Assembly (NCBI GenBank): GCA_963727625.1
Contig: CAVSHR010000006.1
Span: 64,001-128,000, forward strand
Direction of reading: 5' to 3'
Length of the DNA: 64,000 bases
DNA from: an uncultured delta proteobacterium
GTDB lineage: Bacteria; Desulfobacterota; Binatia; UBA9968
Numbering within the stretch: position 1 is the first letter of the stretch; the number at the start of each line of letters is the position of its first letter. The position numbers and the translations under genes were made by a program. Shown one piece after another: positions 34,026-42,381 of the stretch. Under the pieces are notes generated by a model. It made no database searches. It had not been told where the DNA came from and worked only from the letters and a program-made list of their open reading frames with translations.

Positions 34026-35309
34026 TTATTGATTTTCGTTCGACTGCAAAGCGTCCAGCGCTTTCTGAACCAATTTTCTACGCAATTCTTTTTCATCCTC
34101 GGGTTTGAGCTTGGCGTCGCCGGTGACGTGCACGATGCCGGTGCCCAGCACCACCCGGTTCGAACCGACCATTTTGGCGATCGGCTTGGCGGCGGTGATT
34201 TGTACCACCGGGATGCCGGCTTTTTCTAACTCAGTCGTAATCGCAGCGCCGCTGCGAGTGCTGGTGCCTCACGTGGACGTGAGAATGACGGCGTCGACGC
34301 CGTCGCGCTTGATCTTTTCCACCATCTCGCGGCCCAGACGGCGCGTATTCGACAGCGGATTGGAGCGTCCGCAGGTGGAGAGAAATTCATCGTGGAGCTT
34401 GCCGATGACGCCGTTTTTCTCCATCTCGCGGAGAGCGTCGAGGGGCACAAGTCGATCGGGATCTTGCTGAACAAAGCGGGTGTCGTAGCCGCCGTGGGAC
34501 ACCTCGTAGTCTTCTGCGCGCAGGTCGTCGCGGCCTTCGATATTGTAGGCTCCCCATCGTGTCGCAGCCGTGCCCTCGATGCGATCGGGATTGCCCTTGG
34601 GAACCAGACCGCCGTCGGTGATCAGCATCACTCGAGCTTTGGACATGTCTTTGACCGCGGCAGGAATCGGCACGGGCGCGAAAGTGGTCGCCGGCATTTC
34701 GGATTGGAACGTTGCACCGCTTAATTTCGCCATGAGCATATCGCCCAGCCGCGTCGCCGCGCTTTTCTCAACCAGCTGATCGCGCAGCCAGCCGCGAGGT
34801 AAATAACCTTCTTCGGCGGGCGAACCGATCGGTTCTTTTTCGACCAGTTTTCCGCTGAGGCTTGCCATCGAGCCAACCACATTGCGCAGTTTGGTCACGT
34901 TGGTGCCTGAGTCGATGATGTAGAGCGTATCGCGGAAAAGATCGACGCCGGGATTCTCCTCGCTCATAGCGGCGACGGCGGGAATGCCCAGATCGGTTTG
35001 CACGGCGCGGCAAATCGCGCCCGCCGCCATGCCGTAGCGGCCGGCATCGAAACATGGGCCGGCGATGAAAAGGTCGAGCTTTTCGTTCCGAATCCGATCC
35101 AAAACCGCAGCCGTGAGCTCTGTCTGGTTTTCGACGGCATAGTTATCGCCGCAGACGAAAGTCAAAACCACTTGGGCGTCGGGGCCGAGCAAAGATTCGA
35201 AGAGTTTCCCCGGTCCGACCGCGCCGTCGCGAATCTCCAAACCCTTGCCGGCATGTTCTTCCGCGCCAATGCCGCCAAAGAACTGATTCAGGTAATGTGC
35301 GATGCGCAT
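34026..35309 (-). CDS. grdB: Glycine/sarcosine/betaine reductase-family selenoprotein B (Sec at UGA 34269-34271)
   Basis: HYLNQFFGGIG, GPCFDAGRYG, TDGGLVPKGNPD, HGGYD; frame reads VILTST-UGA-GTSTRSGAAITTELEKAGIPVVQI and joins ORF 34026-34208, giving 427 aa. Confidence 0.9.
34241..34257 (-). promoter_or_regulatory. Putative bacterial SECIS hairpin
   Basis: mRNA UCGCAGC-GGC-GCUGCGA, starting 11 nt after the in-frame UGA. Confidence 0.7.
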
Positions 35310-35329
35310 GTGAAACTCCTTGAAGAGCC

Positions 35330-35398
35330 GTGAGCCGCGAGGCGAGAGGCTTGAGTAAGAATCTTCGCTCGCGCCTCAAGCCTTTCGCCTCGTGCCTT
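35330..35398. repeat. Intergenic 7-mer periodic inverted repeat
   Basis: CGAGGCGAGAGGCTTGAG ... CTCAAGCCTTTCGCCTCG. Confidence 0.6.
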
Positions 35399-35399
35399 C

Positions 35400-36680
35400 T
35401 TAGTACACCAAAGACCTCATTCTCGACGCGCCCTGTTGGTTGGTGACGCCGACGATGTTGTTGGCATCGATGGTCATGGGGCCAGTGAGTAAATCGGAGA
35501 ACTCGGGCGTGGCGGCGATGACGCGATCGACCTTGGGCACGTCCCATCTCGTGCCGTTGCCCCCGTTGTAGACGATGGCGTCGACTTCGGGAACGTTGAA
35601 GAGCAGCGCCGACTCGACGCGCCGGTCGCGCGACACATCGGACACCATAACCGCCGTGCGAATTTTCATGGCCTCCAGCAGACGCGCGGTTTCCGCCAAG
35701 TCTGCGTGCGGCAAGCCGCCGCCGTACTTTGACAGCACCGCGCCGTCTGCCTTTAGATTCCAACTAACCAAATTCGCTGCCGCCTTGCAGTGGCGCTCGC
35801 GATCGAAGTTGTCCGAGCCTGCAATCGTTGCCACGGTGCCGACAAAATTAATCTCGCGCGCGTGATGGCGGCGATAGAGATCGAGAATAATCGGCTGGTT
35901 TTGATAAAAATAAGTTTCCGTGCCACCGAACCAGGAGTGCAGCGACGGCACGATGGCGCCGTCGAGCCACTCGTCGGGGTGGAGCACAATCGGCAGCATG
36001 CCGTCGGTATTGGCGCCGTAAAGAATCGGTTCGTCGACTTCCGGTTTCCGTTGCCGCGAAAAGATCTGCCCGACGTAGGCCACGCGCGGCAAACCTTCGC
36101 GCCCGCTTACTGCCGGTCCCACGGGTTGGAATTGATGCAGCGAATGGGCCGGCTGATCCGTGACGAAGCGCGCCAGCGCGACCGCGACTCGAAGCCCGGC
36201 GATGCGGTACGCTTTCTCAATCGCTTGGCGGGACAATCCTGGCTTGGTGTGTGGAATCACCAGAAGATGGCAAAGCGACGAATAGTCGCTCGCCGCAACC
36301 GGCGCACCGCTCATTTCGAGCACGCGCCCGGTGGCGCTGCGCGTCAAGTCGGGTGAGATTTCCGCGAGCACGGAAACTGCCGCTCCGGTCAGGACGTGGG
36401 TTGTCCCCACACCCGCAGTTAGCGGAGCTCCCAAAATTCCCGGAAAGTCCGCACCCGAGCCGGAGGCTTTTGCACGCGGTTCAATAACGTCGAAGATCGG
36501 CCCGGCGCGGCAACTCTCGCCCGGGTGGACGATGGCGAAATCGACGCCGATATAGCAATCATCTTGCAGCACCACACGGCGCAGCTCGGCGGAATCGATG
36601 GAGAGGACTTCACCTTCGAGGCGCGCCGGCGCATCGAATTTGAGTTCGCGAACCGGATGTTTTGCTAAGGTTAGTTGCAA
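35400..36680 (-). CDS. Glycine/sarcosine/betaine reductase component B proprotein (GrdE-like)
   Basis: PGESCR...DVIEPRAK, FPG, GTTHVL.G, HPDEWLDGAIV, YFYQNQP, VDAIV; directly upstream of grdB-like gene. Confidence 0.85.
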   Translation of the reverse strand: MQLTLAKHPVRELKFDAPARLEGEVLSIDSAELRRVVLQDDCYIGVDFAIVHPGESCRAGPIFDVIEPRAKASGSGADFPGILGAPLTAGVGTTHVLTGAAVSVLAEISPDLTRSATGRVLEMSGAPVAASDYSSLCHLLVIPHTKPGLSRQAIEKAYRIAGLRVAVALARFVTDQPAHSLHQFQPVGPAVSGREGLPRVAYVGQIFSRQRKPEVDEPILYGANTDGMLPIVLHPDEWLDGAIVPSLHSWFGGTETYFYQNQPIILDLYRRHHAREINFVGTVATIAGSDNFDRERHCKAAANLVSWNLKADGAVLSKYGGGLPHADLAETARLLEAMKIRTAVMVSDVSRDRRVESALLFNVPEVDAIVYNGGNGTRWDVPKVDRVIAATPEFSDLLTGPMTIDANNIVGVTNQQGASRMRSLVY

Positions 36681-36910: not shown

Positions 36911-38431
36911 ATGCTGCGTTTCTCGCCCAATCCCAACCTCGCCCACTTGATCCGTTGGTTCGAGTGGGAAGACGACGCCTTTCAAAAGGCGCAAGAAGAG
37001 GACAAGCCGGTGATGCTTTTTCTATCGGCTTTTTGGTGCCGCTACTGCCAGCGCATGGATGAAGGCTCGCTGTCCGACCGGGAAAACATGGCGCTACTGA
37101 ACGCCTATTTCATCGCGCTCAGAGCCGAAGACGCGAAGCGGCCGGACCTGGATGCGCGCTACAATCTCAACGGCTGGCCGACCGTCGCGTTTTTCACTCC
37201 AGCGGGGGATTTGCTCGCGGCGTCCAACTTTCTCCCGGTTGAGGAATTCAAAACTCTGCTGCTCAATGTTTATTTGTCTTATCAGGAAAAAACTGCCGAA
37301 ACCCGCGCGGCCCATCCGGCAGAGACCAGTAAAATTTCGACGACGGACGCCGCGAAAAAGGCGGCGGAAGCGATTCTCAGCGAGATCACCGATGCGATCA
37401 TGGCGCTGGCCGATTCCGTTAACGGCGGCTACGGCCGTGGCCAGAAATTTATCCTGGCGCCGGTAAACGATTTTTTGCTGAGCCGTTACGAAGCGACTCG
37501 AACACCCGCCTATCTCGCTCATGTGCGGCTAACGCTGGATCGCATGCGCGGAGGGCAGATTCACGATGTCGAGGCGGGCGGATATTTTCGTACCACGACG
37601 GGCGCGGATTGGGTGCAGCCGCACCGAGAAAAGCTGCTGGTCGAGCAGGCAGGTCTCTTGTCGAACTGTCTTCACGTATTCCGCCTTACCGGGCGCGATG
37701 AATACGCGCGCATGGCGGAGGAGATCATCGCATACTTGGACAAGAAGCTTTTCGACGCTAAGACCGGCGCTTTTTTCGGCTGCGAAGATTTTCTTAGGCG
37801 CGAAGGCCCGGCGGGATCGCCCGACGGTGAATTGTTTTCGATCATCGATGAGTGCATTTACACCGACGCCAATGCCGTCACCGCCGCCGGCTATCTTGAA
37901 GCGAGCGCGCTCTTGGGTCGAACGGAATGTAAAGCGCGGGCGCTGGACGTGCTTGATTTTCTCTGGAAGCGTTGCCGCAGCGTGGAGACGGGCATGTATC
38001 ACTATCATGACGGCACGCCACGGCTACCGGGAATGCTGCTGGATCAGGCGCTGGTGGGGACCGCGCTGCTCAAAGCTTACCGCGCGACTCACGACGCAAA
38101 ATATCTCGAGCAGGCAGAGGGGATCGGCGAGTTCATTCTAGCCCGGCTCAAGAATTACGACGGCGGTTTTTACGATCGCGATGCGTGCGAGCTCGGCTTT
38201 CTCAAGCGACCTTTGACAGATCTGGATCAGAATGGCGCTGCGGCATCATTCTTTATGATGCTTGCCGCGGCGGGAGGCGACTCGAAATATCACGGGGCCG
38301 CGCTCTGGGCGGCAGGTGCGGCCAGCGACAGTACGGCGCATTATGGAATTCATTCCGCTCGACTCGGTCGCGCGCTAGGTGAAATTCTTAGCTCGACAAA
38401 TCGGCGCCCGTCAAATTCGTTTTCCGGTTAA
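36911..38431 (+). CDS. DUF255/YyaL (SSP411)-like thioredoxin-domain protein
   Basis: WFEWEDDAF, KPVMLFL, WCRYC, RPDLDARY, GWPTVAF, GGYFR, PHREKLL. Confidence 0.88.
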   Translation: MLRFSPNPNLAHLIRWFEWEDDAFQKAQEEDKPVMLFLSAFWCRYCQRMDEGSLSDRENMALLNAYFIALRAEDAKRPDLDARYNLNGWPTVAFFTPAGDLLAASNFLPVEEFKTLLLNVYLSYQEKTAETRAAHPAETSKISTTDAAKKAAEAILSEITDAIMALADSVNGGYGRGQKFILAPVNDFLLSRYEATRTPAYLAHVRLTLDRMRGGQIHDVEAGGYFRTTTGADWVQPHREKLLVEQAGLLSNCLHVFRLTGRDEYARMAEEIIAYLDKKLFDAKTGAFFGCEDFLRREGPAGSPDGELFSIIDECIYTDANAVTAAGYLEASALLGRTECKARALDVLDFLWKRCRSVETGMYHYHDGTPRLPGMLLDQALVGTALLKAYRATHDAKYLEQAEGIGEFILARLKNYDGGFYDRDACELGFLKRPLTDLDQNGAAASFFMMLAAAGGDSKYHGAALWAAGAASDSTAHYGIHSARLGRALGEILSSTNRRPSNSFSG

Positions 38432-38596: not shown

Positions 38597-39766
38597 ATGA
38601 CCTATAAAATCCGCACGCGCGACCAACACTTTCTCAACGACGGCAGTCCGAAGCGCATTCTCGCCCTTGACGGCGGCGGGCTGCGCGGCATCGTCACGTT
38701 GTCGTTTCTCGCCGAGATCGAAGCGATACTCAGAGAGCGCTATGGCAGCGCGGACAATTTTCGTCTCAGCCACTATTTCGATTTAATTGCTGGCACGTCG
38801 ACCGGGTCGATCATTGCCGCGGCACTGGCGCGCGGCATGACCGTGACAGAAATCACCAAAAAATACTTGGATCTCGGCCAGCGGGTGTTCCAAAAAAGCT
38901 GGTTGCGCCAGGGTTTTGTTCGGGCGTTCTACGACGAAGCCGGCTTGATCGATGAGCTCAAACGGGTTTACGGACCGAACACGTCAATGGGCGATCCATC
39001 GTTGCAGACCGGACTGCTGATCGTCACCAAGCGACTGGACAGCGGCAGCACCTGGCCGGTCTCGAACAATCCGCGCGGGAAATACTATGGCCCTCGCCCC
39101 AACAATGCGGTCATCGTCAACTCGGCCTATCCGCTCTGGCAGGTGGTGCGTGCATCGACAGCGGCGCCGCGCTACTTCGATCCGGAAAAGATCGAAATCA
39201 GCCGCGGCAAGGCCGGCGAAGTGCCGATCATCGGCGAGTTCGTCGACGGCGGGGTGAGCCCGTATAATAACCCTGCGCTGCAAGCGTTGATGTATGCGAC
39301 TTTGGATGGCTATTGCGTTGGCTGGCCGACCGGCGCGGACAAATTACTGCTGGTCTCGGTGGGCACGGGTTCGCGCGATCCCAAGATCGCGCCCGCCAAG
39401 CTGGCGGCTGAAAACGCGCTCAAGTCAATGCTTTCCTTAATGGACGACTGCGCCGAGCTGGTCGAAACCTTGTTGCAATGGATGTCGAGCAGCCACACCG
39501 CGCGCGCCATCGATCGCGAAGTTGGCGACTTGCGCCATGACCTGATCGCTGCGCAGCCGTTGATCAATTACTTGCGTTACAATGTCGCGCTAACGCAGGA
39601 CTCCCTGACAGGTCTCGGTTTGAAGTTCGACGACGAAAAAGTCGCTGGGTTAAGCGCGATGGACGATCCGGCGAACATGACGACGCTGGAAGGGATCGGT
39701 GCCAAAGCGGCGAAGCAGCAGGTGCGCGCCGAAGATTTTTCATCGAATTTTGACTTGATGCCGTGA
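38597..39766 (+). CDS. Patatin-like phospholipase
   Basis: DGGGLRG, GTSTG nucleophile elbow, RASTAAP, DGG, SVGTG; GGAGAGG RBS before MTYKIR. Confidence 0.93.
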   Translation: MTYKIRTRDQHFLNDGSPKRILALDGGGLRGIVTLSFLAEIEAILRERYGSADNFRLSHYFDLIAGTSTGSIIAAALARGMTVTEITKKYLDLGQRVFQKSWLRQGFVRAFYDEAGLIDELKRVYGPNTSMGDPSLQTGLLIVTKRLDSGSTWPVSNNPRGKYYGPRPNNAVIVNSAYPLWQVVRASTAAPRYFDPEKIEISRGKAGEVPIIGEFVDGGVSPYNNPALQALMYATLDGYCVGWPTGADKLLLVSVGTGSRDPKIAPAKLAAENALKSMLSLMDDCAELVETLLQWMSSSHTARAIDREVGDLRHDLIAAQPLINYLRYNVALTQDSLTGLGLKFDDEKVAGLSAMDDPANMTTLEGIGAKAAKQQVRAEDFSSNFDLMP

Positions 39767-39819
39767 ATGTCGCATAGCGCTGAACGTCTCAAAATCTCCG
39801 AAGCAATCCGAGGTGCGGC

Positions 39820-41820
39820 GTGAAGAATGTTTTCATCGTTCGGCCGTTCGGCAAGAAAAGCGGCATCGACTTCGAGCGCGTCGAGATCGATCTAATGCAG
39901 CCGGCGATGCGGCAGGCCGGACTCACGGGCGGGACGACGGGACAGATTCTCCAGCAGGGAAACATCCGCACCGACATGTTCGAGCAGCTCTTGATCGCCG
40001 ATCTGGTGATCGCCGATATCTCGATTCATAACGCCAATGTTTTTTACGAGCTCGGTATTCGCCAAGCCCTGCGCGATAAACGGACCTTTCTTATCAGAGC
40101 GGTGAAAAAGTCGACGGATGCAGACGCAAAGGAAGAGGAGGTTCCCTTCGATCTCAAAACCGACCGGTACCTGGCTTACGAAGCCGGTAATCCCGGCGCC
40201 AGCGTCGCCGTTCTCGCGGCCGCGCTCAACGCGACCTTGGATTCGCTCAAGGCCGACAGCCCGGTCTACCAACTGCTGCCAGAGTTGAATCCTGCCGACC
40301 CGAGCAAGTTTCTCGTCTTGCCGCTCGATTTCCGCGAGGAAGTCGAACGAGCCGAGGCGGTCAAGAATTGCGCCGACGTCCAGCTGCTCGGCGCGGAGGT
40401 GGATGGCTTTGCCTGGCGCGCTGCCGGTTTGCGCCTGGTTGGACAAGCCCAATTTCGCTTGCGCGACTGGACCGGAGCGAAGGCGACATGGATGGCCGTG
40501 CGCGACTATGACGATACGGATCTCGAAAGCAACACGCTGCTCGGCACGATCTACCAACGGCTTGGTGATCTCATCGCTTCTGATCAAGCGCTGGAGCGCG
40601 CGTTGCAGAACCGGGATCTGGACCCGCGCGACCGCGCGGAAATCCTCGCCTTGACCGGCCGCAACGCCAAGACGCAATGGGAGCAAGCCTGGGCTGACTC
40701 CACCGAGCTCGACAGCCGGCAAAGAGCCGCGCTGGCCTCGCCGTATCTGGAAAAATCCCTAGAGCTTTACCACCAGGGATTTGTCGCGGACCGTAATCAT
40801 TTTTACTCGGGACTGAACGCTCTGGCGATGGTGACGGTTCTGACCGAACTGGCAGACGTTCAGATAGTTCTTTGGCAGGCAGGCTTCGATGACAACGACG
40901 AGGCGGAACGGAAACTGCGCGAGCTCAAAGATTTACGCGCCGACCTCGCGGTCGGAGTCAAGCTCGCGATCGAATCCAAACAAGCGGCGTTAAGGCGCGA
41001 TCAGCAAACCGACATCTGGGCCGAGGTCAGTAACGCGGATCTAACCTGTTTGACTTCGACGCGTGCCAATCGCGTCGGTCTGGCCTACAAGCGCGCGCTG
41101 GCCGGCGCCCCCGATTTCGCCAATCAAGCGGTCCGCCGGCAGCTTTTGCTCTATCAAAAGCTCGGAGTTTTCGGCGACAATATTCAGGCCGCCCTTGATA
41201 ACATCCCGGCCGTCGCGCTGCCGGGAGAGGGCGCGCCCATGCAAACCCGAATACTCCTGTTTACCGGACACCGCATCGACTCGCCCAATCGAAAGGAGCC
41301 GCGCTTTCCCGCCGCCAAAGAACAGCAGGCGAGGGTGATGATTCGTGAAGCCGTAATGAGGGAAAAAGAAAAACCGAACGGACAACTGTTCGGCATCTCC
41401 GGCGGCGCCTCCGGCGGCGATATCCTATTTCACGAAGTGTGCGAAGAGCTCGGGATTCCCAGCCAGATGTATCTGGTGTTGCCGAAAAGCGAGTATATCA
41501 AGGCCTCGGTCGCGGACGGCGGGCCGGATTGGGTTGATCGTTTCGATCGTCTCTTCGATAAGCTCCAACCGAAAATTCTATCCGATTCGGAACAGCTGCC
41601 GCGCTGGCTCAGGGCGAAAAAAAATTACAGCGTCTGGCAGCGTTCCAATCTCTGGATGCTGCACAATGCTCTCTATATTTCACAGGATCACCTCACGTTG
41701 ATGGCCTTGTGGAACGGCGCCGCGGGCGACGGTCCGGGTGGCACCGAAGACATGGTGCAGCGCGCTCAGGATCGCGGCGCGCGGTTTATCCATCTCGACG
41801 CGCGTAAACTGATCGCTTAA
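39820..41820 (+). CDS. NDT-like + TPR (DUF4071/ASK1-like) + SLOG-like multidomain protein
   Basis: N-term VFIVRPFG...ADLVIADISIHNANVFYELGIR, PFD; helical TPR middle with YSGLNA; C-term FTGHRID, GGASGGDILF, ALWNG...GPGGT. Confidence 0.8.
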   Translation: MKNVFIVRPFGKKSGIDFERVEIDLMQPAMRQAGLTGGTTGQILQQGNIRTDMFEQLLIADLVIADISIHNANVFYELGIRQALRDKRTFLIRAVKKSTDADAKEEEVPFDLKTDRYLAYEAGNPGASVAVLAAALNATLDSLKADSPVYQLLPELNPADPSKFLVLPLDFREEVERAEAVKNCADVQLLGAEVDGFAWRAAGLRLVGQAQFRLRDWTGAKATWMAVRDYDDTDLESNTLLGTIYQRLGDLIASDQALERALQNRDLDPRDRAEILALTGRNAKTQWEQAWADSTELDSRQRAALASPYLEKSLELYHQGFVADRNHFYSGLNALAMVTVLTELADVQIVLWQAGFDDNDEAERKLRELKDLRADLAVGVKLAIESKQAALRRDQQTDIWAEVSNADLTCLTSTRANRVGLAYKRALAGAPDFANQAVRRQLLLYQKLGVFGDNIQAALDNIPAVALPGEGAPMQTRILLFTGHRIDSPNRKEPRFPAAKEQQARVMIREAVMREKEKPNGQLFGISGGASGGDILFHEVCEELGIPSQMYLVLPKSEYIKASVADGGPDWVDRFDRLFDKLQPKILSDSEQLPRWLRAKKNYSVWQRSNLWMLHNALYISQDHLTLMALWNGAAGDGPGGTEDMVQRAQDRGARFIHLDARKLIA

Positions 41821-41967: not shown

Positions 41968-42381
41968 ATGTCGATCGCGGGACTTCGTTTCGGACATAGC
42001 GCTTTTAAAGTCGCTAACGTCAAGCGCAGTCTTCGCTGGTACGCGGACGTCTTTGGCGCAACAAAAATTTATCAAGCCGAGGCGTAAGGCGATCGACCGG
42101 AACTGATGTTTCTCGAATTCACCAAGGGGCAGTGCGTCGAGCTATTCACCGGCGGCAAGAACATGCTGCCCTCGCCGCCGGATCCGATCGGGTACGTTCA
42201 CTTTTGCCTGGTGGTCGACGATCTGGAACAGGCGCTGGAATATCTCGCCACCATGAACGTCAAGCCGGAGCGAAAGTTTATCGGCCGGGCCAAGCAACAA
42301 ATCGCGTTTGTCTCCGATCCCGATGGCAACAGCATCGAGCCGATGGAAATCCCGCCGGATTCGGAAATTTACCGTGAGTAA
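41968..42381 (+). pseudogene. VOC/glyoxalase family protein with one in-frame TAA (42085-42087)
   Basis: GHSAFKV..SLRWYADVFG then TAA, same frame continues VELF, HFCLVVDD, DPDGNSIE. Confidence 0.8.

Follow-up and report, generated by a model that had tools for sequence, protein, structure and literature searches.

The stretch of DNA studied here, referred to as the window, comprises 64,000 nucleotides of contig CAVSHR010000006.1 from an uncultured delta proteobacterium of the Binatia (C6:64001-128000 of a 6.6-Mb genome in 15 contigs; assembly GCA_963727625.1), and coordinates given below without a genome or locus label are window positions. It contains two neighbouring genes on the forward strand, the first of which encodes a patatin-like phospholipase (gene 1; 38597..39766, +) and the second a protein of three domains that we refer to as the hub (gene 2; 39820..41820, +). 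A preliminary description made from the sequence alone had put this pair forward as a candidate defence operon, in which the second protein would make or read a nucleotide signal that activates the lipase.

Gene 1 starts with the ATG at 38597, which is preceded by GGAGAGG, and ends with the stop codon at 39766, giving a protein of 389 residues. Gene 2 starts with the GTG at 39820, ends at 41820 and encodes 666 residues. The two are separated by an intergenic spacer of 53 nt (39767..39819, +), in which GAGG stands right before the GTG of gene 2. Translation thus reproduced the co-orientation and the 53-nt gap that had been reported for the pair. No terminator-like site was found between the two genes on the forward strand in a consensus scan; the same type of scan gave 0 promoter-like sites, and terminator-like sites were no commoner than in shuffled sequences.

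Domain composition of the two proteins

Gene 1 matched the Pfam family Patatin with an E-value of 4.2e-27 and the phospholipase effector models of PADLOC with E-values down to 5.6e-45 (PDLC00758). At E-values up to 1, its only matches in NCBIfam were CBASS_lipase and DS2_1, both of which describe anti-phage lipases. It should be noted that the scores stay below the respective cut-offs, with 116.4 bits against the 200-bit equivalog cut-off for the model of the cyclic GMP-AMP-activated lipase of CBASS (CBASS_lipase, NF041079) and 79 bits against 400 for the anti-phage phospholipase model DS2_1. The stretches LALDGGGLRG, IAGTSTGS and FVDGGV are all present in the translation, and they hold the predicted catalytic features, namely the oxyanion motif DGGGLRG, the nucleophile Ser68 in GTSTG and, as the second member of the dyad, Asp217 in DGG. 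When the partner patatins of 40 related loci were aligned, residues G26-G28, G66-T-S-T-G70 and D217-G218 were invariant, and the same was true for Y325, R327 and D356 in the C-terminal part. Judged from its sequence, gene 1 is a patatin with a predicted intact Ser-Asp dyad, the nearest curated families of which are anti-phage lipases, and the assignment made for it in the preliminary description was upheld.

The hub was modelled with AlphaFold2 on an alignment of 51 diverse homologues. The model (predicted local distance difference test score, pLDDT, 92.0; predicted template modelling score 0.86) consists of a Rossmann-like domain (residues 1-165), an all-helical part (residues 169-460) and a second Rossmann-like domain (residues 476-666). 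The motifs that had been picked out for this protein, IADISIHNANVFYELGIR, FYSGLNA, FTGHR, GGASGGD and LWNGAAGDGPGGT, were all found in its translation.

The N-terminal domain (39820..40314, +) carries the motif D66..N71-A-N73-V-F-Y-E77-L-G, in which D66, N71, N73, Y76, E77 and G79 are invariant among 45 sequences, so that the Glu at the likely catalytic position is indeed kept throughout the family. This motif and several profile matches of low significance point to a class of domains that includes nucleoside deoxyribosyltransferases (NDT), deoxyribohydrolases (DRHyd) and TIR domains. The TIR effector model of PADLOC matched residues 42-114 with an E-value of 5.3e-4. The language-model neighbours of the domain, which we treat as leads only, were nucleoside 2-deoxyribosyltransferase (0.90) and an ASK1 cluster with PF20309, DRHyd-ASK (0.84). 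Together with two matches given below, these signals are individually weak but consistent, and all of them are directed towards a domain of the NDT/DNPH1/TIR type, in agreement with the NDT-like domain that had been proposed for this region.

The helical middle part (40324..41199, +) includes the conserved NHFYSGLNAL and was recognised in residues 216-337 by the Pfam family TPR-S (PF20308), where its score of 47.3 bits exceeds the cut-off of 27.6 (E-value 3.3e-12). This agrees with the TPR-like middle part with YSGLN that the preliminary description had noted. A likeness to the regulatory region of ASK1/MAP3K5 had also been suggested, and as far as the tools reach it was recovered. Among the Foldseek rows listed, the chain of ASK1 determined by cryo-electron microscopy (8qgy_B) had the highest query-normalised template modelling (TM) score, which was 0.30 (513 columns, E-value 2.8e-4). 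The Pfam family MAP3K_TRAF_bd scored 13.1 bits with the hub and 20-21 bits with its relatives, in all cases under the cut-off of 24.1, and the PF20309 lead mentioned above falls in line with both. For the rest, the Foldseek search with the whole hub returned mostly generic TPR proteins, and a profile search of the PDB with the whole hub returned generic TPR proteins only.

The C-terminal domain (41245..41817, +) is marked by the motifs FTGHRxD, GGAxGGDxxFHExC and WNGxxGDGPGGT. Folded alone, it reached a pLDDT of 94.6, and the first-ranked PDB match of this model in Foldseek was Bacillus subtilis YpsA (2nx2; E-value 1.5e-5, TM-scores 0.59/0.65). The next matches all belonged to the SLOG superfamily (DprA, ShosA, the N-terminal domain of TRPM2 and the Moco carrier protein), and they were followed at lower probability by unrelated Rossmann or barrel enzymes. 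Among the viral models of BFVD, the matches were phage SLOG proteins related to YspA and cpYpsA, DUF2493 and DprA-like proteins, with TM-scores of up to 0.67/0.77. At the sequence level, a Pfam search with the domain of the window gave no match, the family YAcAr matched only 4 of 45 relatives (best E-value 7.5e-4), and a profile search of the PDB with this domain gave no significant match. The modelled domain is therefore described here as a predicted SLOG fold of the YpsA-like type, as had been surmised from its motifs, with weak support at the sequence level. A prediction of the complex between hub residues 166-666 and the patatin, run on alignments and without controls, scored 0.00 and gives no verdict either way.

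A stand-alone ORF (open reading frame) of 206 residues with 31% identity to the SLOG domain of the hub was observed at G000:C14:65637-66206 (L113 6605-7225, +). It has no Pfam match and stands beside a gene for a low-affinity iron permease and a small entericidin-like ORF. Similar single-domain SLOG copies are the sole match in genomes G002, G003, G004, G014 and G019 of the set searched.

Association of the patatin with the hub across genomes

The hub belongs to a large family. Of 8000 candidates scored in a word-indexed protein search, 3307 matched with E-values of at most 0.001. The best 120 of these are all 658-681 residues long with identities of 69-100%, and the records of the closest homologues are labelled Candidatus Binatia, 'delta proteobacterium' and similar. 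An exhaustive search of representatives clustered at 50% identity gave 6133 matches at E-values of at most 0.001, 1829 at 1e-10 and 543 at 1e-30. Most of the listed representatives are full length, and some forms of about 460 residues lack the SLOG domain. In species-representative genomes, relatives of the hub are encoded at no fewer than 566 loci, out of 598 stretches selected by pattern. The best 80 of these loci, which form the set used for the comparisons below, span Acidobacteriota, Bacteroidota, Pseudomonadota, Actinomycetota, Nitrospirota, Chlorobiota, Planctomycetota, Chloroflexota, Cyanobacteriota and others, amounting to more than 10 phyla.

By tblastn, a patatin was found beside the hub in 49 of the 80 loci, in many phyla, and the homologues of the two genes are thus co-localised elsewhere. 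One of these 49 (L037) has a remnant of 42 residues only, and in four others (L031, L059, L071 and L075) the patatin lies 0.9-3.7 kb off by ORF position. The 31 patatin-negative loci include 7 with almost no flanking sequence and 1 in which only the SLOG domain is matched. When all 627 ORFs within 4 kb of the hub were clustered over the 80 loci, only the cluster of patatins, found in 42 loci, exceeded 7 loci, and the next clusters were SLATT/DUF4231 proteins (7 loci) and large WD40 proteins, some of them with TIR (6 loci). The arrangement is also regular: among 43 patatin partner ORFs, 38 share the orientation of the hub, with 33 of them upstream and 5 downstream of it, and the others are divergent (2) or convergent (3); 35 of 43 lie within 150 nt. 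The pairing is far beyond chance, and the patatin is the only neighbour conserved over the 80 loci.

Within the genus, a patatin stood directly upstream of the hub in 8 of 10 loci when flanks of 1.5 kb were inspected, the locus of the window included; if the unpublished genome G005 is left out, the count is 7 of 9. The hub copy of genome G017 is without a patatin and stands alone beside a gene for an NMT1-like binding protein, and that of G018 is also without a patatin. On contig C77 of G027, a hub copy of 68% identity has no patatin ahead of it and is followed by a TIR_2 protein of 425 residues. This TIR_2 gene (L097 5328-6605, -) represents a swap of partners within one genus.

The relatives of the hub show that the patatin can be replaced, by SLATT, TIR_2, SIR2-AAA, ParA-nSTAND1 or NB-ARC, either as fusions or as neighbours. 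SLATT-like genes were present in the flanks of 10 of the 80 loci. TPR-S was found in all 8 long representatives scanned, and the extra parts of these proteins were TIR_2 (1), DUF4231 with SLATT_1 (2), SIR2_2 with an ABC-type ATPase (1), a ParA-like domain with nSTAND1 (1) and NB-ARC (2, one of them weak), with none recognised in the last (1). The exchange of the patatin for SLATT, TIR or STAND modules fits a conflict system with exchangeable effectors. As for the longer forms, there were 26 proteins of 1173-1487 residues among the matches listed, nearly all of which have a ParA-like domain with nSTAND1, or NB-ARC, in front.

A family tree, for which no root was inferred, was built from the window and those 70 loci of the 80 in which the family ORF reaches at least 560 residues. 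In it, a clade of 9 rows with SLATT and TIR-WD40 partners is set against a clade of 62 rows. Patatin partners occur in 43 rows of the latter, where they are scattered, and the branches with good support require a minimum of 11 changes of state. We read this as an old association of patatin and hub with repeated loss, bearing in mind that gain and loss are not separable on an unrooted tree. The distance matrices of patatin and hub from 36 loci were correlated with a Mantel r of 0.525, and 0 of 2000 permutations reached as high a value; this correlation can be explained by shared ancestry alone.

Several loci of the set deserve mention in their own right. In a Noviherbaspirillum metagenome-assembled genome (MAG), the patatin remnant of L037 (5726-5851; 60% identity to residues 7-48) precedes an intact hub gene by 150 nt, and the 42 residues that are left suggest a loss of the lipase by deletion. 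In a Kriegella MAG (L045 3835-8446), a TIR gene on the opposite strand is followed by patatin, hub and SLATT, an arrangement that joins both membrane effectors with TIR. In an Anaerolineales MAG, a gene for a cNMP_binding protein (L089 3391-3888) lies just before a SLATT gene and the hub gene. The fusion of a ParA-like ATPase and nSTAND1 (or NB-ARC) in front of the module is recurrent (L019 4411-7998; P0273-P0297; about 1170-1490 residues) and comes mostly from records of the Acidobacteriota type.

Relation to Thoeris-type systems and proposed mechanism

Two preprints describe relatives of the first two domains of the hub. In one of them, BcTir/BcTpr is reported as an anti-phage operon of Bacillus cereus, in which BcTpr, a protein of 415 residues, combines a MilB-like glycosidase domain at its N-terminus with a TPR domain (10.1101/2023.05.26.542521). 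The glycosidase domain is reported to consume NAD+ and to make an isomer of cyclic ADP-ribose (cADPR) by means of a Glu equivalent to E77 of the hub, and the substitutions N82A and E86A abolish NAD+ depletion, formation of the cADPR isomer and defence (10.1101/2023.05.26.542521). The other preprint describes type VIII Thoeris as a TIR protein that makes canonical cADPR upon infection, together with ThsI, a 'CMP hydrolase' with a TPR region predicted by Aravind's group, and type VII Thoeris as a TIR protein together with the SLATT protein ThsH (10.64898/2025.12.03.692087). According to the same source, ThsI-type proteins are activated by the canonical cADPR that TIR makes, a finding made on relatives of the hub, the SLATT protein of type VII is activated by cADPR, and added cADPR is toxic to cells with type VII or VIII Thoeris (10.64898/2025.12.03.692087). 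A class of TIR, DrHyd and SLOG domains has been set out, in which the YpsA-like SLOG clade includes cADPR sensors (PMC9503650).

The hub shares with ThsI the combination of a glycosidase-class domain and a TPR scaffold, and SLATT partners resembling ThsH occur among its relatives, but it has no adjacent TIR, it has an additional YpsA-like SLOG domain at its C-terminus, and its conserved partner is a patatin. BcTpr, compared by its reported residues, has N80/P81/N82/E86 in the spacing of N71-A-N73...E77 in the hub (N-x-N-x3-E), whereas it is shorter at 415 residues, has no SLOG domain and has a TIR protein as its partner. This view of the first two domains is supported by the best plasmid record, from Rhizobium sophoriradicis, in which a 'TRAFs-binding domain-containing protein' of 447 residues is followed by DUF4231 (SLATT-type) and TIR genes; in BLASTP it aligned with hub residues 4-380 at 30% identity (E-value 5e-35), with NANVFYELG being identical. 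The statement in the preliminary description that the pair does not match a named system was therefore not borne out, since the first two domains of the hub have the architecture of ThsI in type VIII Thoeris and of BcTpr in BcTir/Tpr.

Other known systems share single features with the pair. The lipase resembles CapV of CBASS, and CBASS_lipase is its best curated match, but its score falls short of the equivalog cut-off, and no nucleotidyltransferase domain was found in the 10 flanking ORFs scanned with Pfam, with the CD-NTase model not searched separately. In CBASS, patatins are activated by nucleotides. Type I Thoeris ThsA (SIR2-SLOG) has in common with the hub a SLOG domain, which in ThsA reads a cADPR isomer; the hub has no SIR2, and its SLOG domain is fused to a different effector and sensor. 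The N-terminal region of ASK1/MAP3K5 (8qgy) likewise has a Rossmann-like domain followed by a TPR-like scaffold, but the hub lacks a kinase domain, and the likeness is limited to the TM-score of 0.30 and Pfam scores under the cut-off that were given above. Conflict systems with TPR-S are similar in that the TPR-S of the hub exceeds the gathering score of Pfam and that its relatives have exchangeable conflict-type effectors. In the TPR-S systems of Burroughs and Aravind (2020), the DRHyd/TIR/SLOG class of domains and a link to the N-terminal part of ASK1 are reportedly found, and both are common to the hub.

That these domains are known from predicted conflict operons, as had been remarked at the outset, holds: 78 operons from the Burroughs and Aravind list are reported to comprise, among others, 29 core-only, 28 Tir-Tpr, 5 YpsA-Tpr and 4 Patatin-Tpr assemblies (10.1101/2023.05.26.542521). 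The supplementary tables of the two preprints may also list the patatin-hub configuration, for instance as one of the 29 putative Thoeris types that use phospholipase effectors. From its sequence, the pair is best described as a TIR-less, SLOG-fused and patatin-coupled variant of the ThsI/BcTpr-type systems, the parts and core architecture of which are known.

We propose, with a probability that we put at roughly 0.55, that the pair is a two-gene abortive-infection module in which the hub handles nucleotides and the patatin is the killing effector; the single steps are less sure than the whole. The hub would be of the ThsI/BcTpr type, with TPR-S, SLOG or both binding an NAD-derived nucleotide of the cADPR class. 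In the DRHyd domain of the hub, Glu77 would serve as the catalytic residue for splitting the N-glycosidic bond in NAD+ or in a nucleotide related to it. As the terminal effector, the CapV-like patatin would be switched on either by the nucleotide that this reaction yields or by the hub in its activated state, and once active it would degrade membrane phospholipids and kill the infected cell. We thus infer a role in phage defence, an assignment of signal-making and signal-reading domains that does without TIR, and the switching on of the lipase. Throughout the family, the residues predicted for catalysis and for the ligand site are intact. The constancy of the hub and the exchangeability of its membrane-targeting partners argue for placing the hub upstream, with its partner as the effector.

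As to the roles of the domains, SLOG and TIR are found together in the SLATT/TIR clade and also within one of the fused representatives. This coexistence makes SLOG more likely a reader than a replacement of TIR, and with SLOG as the reader the invariant DRHyd domain would be the likeliest maker of the signal where TIR is absent. On our analysis, DRHyd as the maker appears the likeliest assignment; it agrees with the preprint on BcTpr and conflicts with the view of ThsI as an effector only. Taken further, the hub could be a whole TIR-independent pathway of NAD signalling within a single polypeptide, in which infection would trigger the synthesis of a cADPR-class messenger by DRHyd (or SLOG), its reading by TPR-S and SLOG would form a feed-forward loop, and this messenger would also switch on the lipase directly. 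We regard this extended form of the proposal as rather improbable.

The strictly invariant catalytic motif of DRHyd also bears on the possibility that no self-made messenger is involved. TPR-S or SLOG might recognise a phage protein, or a nucleotide produced by the phage or by damage, and the hub might then activate the lipase by contact. TPR scaffolds commonly bind proteins, members of the family are fused to STAND NTPases, which are typical direct sensors, and no TIR is present; the invariant motif, on the other hand, argues for nucleotide catalysis as part of the mechanism, and we consider such a direct-sensing switch distinctly unlikely.

The signal could instead come from elsewhere in the genome. 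In the genome of the window, TPR-S occurs in a single gene, and TIR_2 gave 8 matches over the cut-off, each of them on another contig, so that hub and patatin might both answer the cADPR-type signal of an unlinked TIR protein, the hub by depleting nucleotides or NAD+ as ThsI-type effector and the patatin in parallel. This would mirror the operons in which ThsH and ThsI are reported to co-occur and to answer the same signal (10.64898/2025.12.03.692087), and a TIR gene does stand beside the module in L045, L076 and on contig C77 of G027. An unlinked generator would, however, be unusual for modules that spread horizontally, patatin and hub travel without TIR in most loci and phyla, and none of the TIR genes of this genome is near the pair on the contig of the window. 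A double effector signalled in trans therefore seems to us fairly unlikely.

The pair has a wider bearing, as its family extends over many phyla, with 543 representative clusters at E-values of at most 1e-30 and at least 566 loci in species-representative genomes. The patatin-coupled form is the commonest arrangement of the SLOG-bearing branch, and our literature searches found no experiment on that form. Since TIR is usually lacking, it raises the question how a sensor or effector of the Thoeris type is triggered without the canonical maker of the signal, and also which ligand activates a CapV-like lipase outside CBASS. In bacteria, the hub would correspond to the part of human ASK1 that regulates this kinase, and a defined ligand of the hub could be turned into a hypothesis to be tested on ASK1. 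Should the TIR-independent pathway be true, it would represent a second route to bacterial nucleotide immune signalling, without TIR and without a cyclase, and the N-terminal region of animal ASK1 would descend from, and may still be, a sensor of NAD-derived nucleotides.

Distribution within the genus and genomic setting

Of the 30 other genomes of the genus, 14 hold hub copies with at least 66% identity that are either full length or cut by a contig end. The gene order of the window recurs in genome G006, with the gene for a thioredoxin protein followed by patatin, hub, glyoxalase and PEP (phosphoenolpyruvate) mutase. The neighbourhood from thioredoxin to glyoxalase and PEP mutase is the same in G026, where an SBP_bac_5 gene replaces the pair, and in G012 the pair lies between other genes. 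Within the genus, the pair is accessory and patchy. Two decayed hub copies were observed, one with 7 in-frame stops (6 TGA and 1 TAA; G029:C15:763928-765900) and one in four pieces (G027:C54:100944-102935).

The setting of the pair might point to a function outside immunity, such as a nucleotide-regulated remodelling of lipids or stress response, for example membrane turnover tied to the status of NAD+ or nucleotides, that is inherited mainly vertically in the genus. The metabolic flanks and the synteny with the close relative G006 would suit this, as would the lack of a GC anomaly, the few defence genes that adjoin the relatives and the lack of phage or prophage copies. Against such a function stand the patchy distribution with decayed copies in a single genus, the presence of the family in more than 10 phyla, the exchange of partners with SLATT, TIR, SIR2 and STAND modules, and the fact that the NCBIfam matches of gene 1 were confined to two anti-phage lipases. 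We therefore consider a non-immune role quite improbable.

A number of observations nevertheless weigh against the abortive-infection module that we prefer. The flanking genes encode a Rieske oxygenase, a GrdB-like protein, a glycine-reductase-like protein, a thioredoxin/DUF255 protein, a glyoxalase, a PEP mutase, a class II aldolase and an S15 peptidase; by this annotation the pair does sit among unrelated metabolic genes, as first described. The GC content across the pair is 0.57-0.60 without any anomaly, no tRNA was found in the window between 25 and 55 kb, and no mobile-element gene was present among the 10 flanking ORFs scanned. In a PADLOC run on 128 immediate-neighbour ORFs of 71 loci (E-values of at most 1e-5), no family exceeded 3 of the 128, the most frequent ones being TIR-type models and PDC-S66; this is a rough negative, as the ORFs were naive longest-ORF calls and no matched control was included. 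With few PADLOC matches beside the relatives and metabolic flanks in the window, the location in defence islands that had been expected was not observed. No homologue of the hub was found among 50,697 phage records. No TIR gene was found among the genes flanking the pair of the window, and TIR-like genes occurred in the flanks of only 9 of the 80 loci, adjoining the module in 5 of 80; without an adjacent TIR, the source of the signal that defines Thoeris is missing. Two of the N-terminal matches are not significant alone, namely that of Nuc_deoxyrib_tr to 12 of 45 relatives (best E-value 0.022) and that of the N-terminal profile to PDB chains of DNPH1 (E-values 0.06-0.13), in which the Glu of YELG was aligned. 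The role of DRHyd is disputed between two preprints, which report it as a cADPR-activated effector (10.64898/2025.12.03.692087) and as a maker of a cADPR isomer (10.1101/2023.05.26.542521), respectively. Lastly, literature searches that excluded supplements found no experiment on the pair or on any patatin-associated member of the family.

Plasmid records gave 61 matches, which cover residues 4-380 or the SLOG domain only, none of them reaching 80% of the query. Short direct repeats about 2273 nt apart had been considered as the scar of a duplication around gene 2; a pairwise alignment revealed no real similarity, and the repeats were attributed to chance.

Two further observations concern the flanking genes. 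The glyoxalase-family gene 3' of the pair is split over two frames (41969-42087 and 42106-42381, +), the first ORF ending with the TAA at 42085-42087 and the second part beginning at 42106. In relatives it is a single ORF of 137-139 residues (L096 3629-4042, L101 591-1010), and the split is due either to a frameshift in what is now a pseudogene or to an error of the assembly. On the other side, in the region covered by 34269-36680 (-) and 36911-38431 (+), a GrdB-like gene (selenoprotein B family) and a gene similar to glycine reductase component B adjoin the thioredoxin/DUF255 gene. The orthologue of the thioredoxin gene in G026 (C69:16780-18273) contains one in-frame TGA, which could be a selenocysteine codon or an error.

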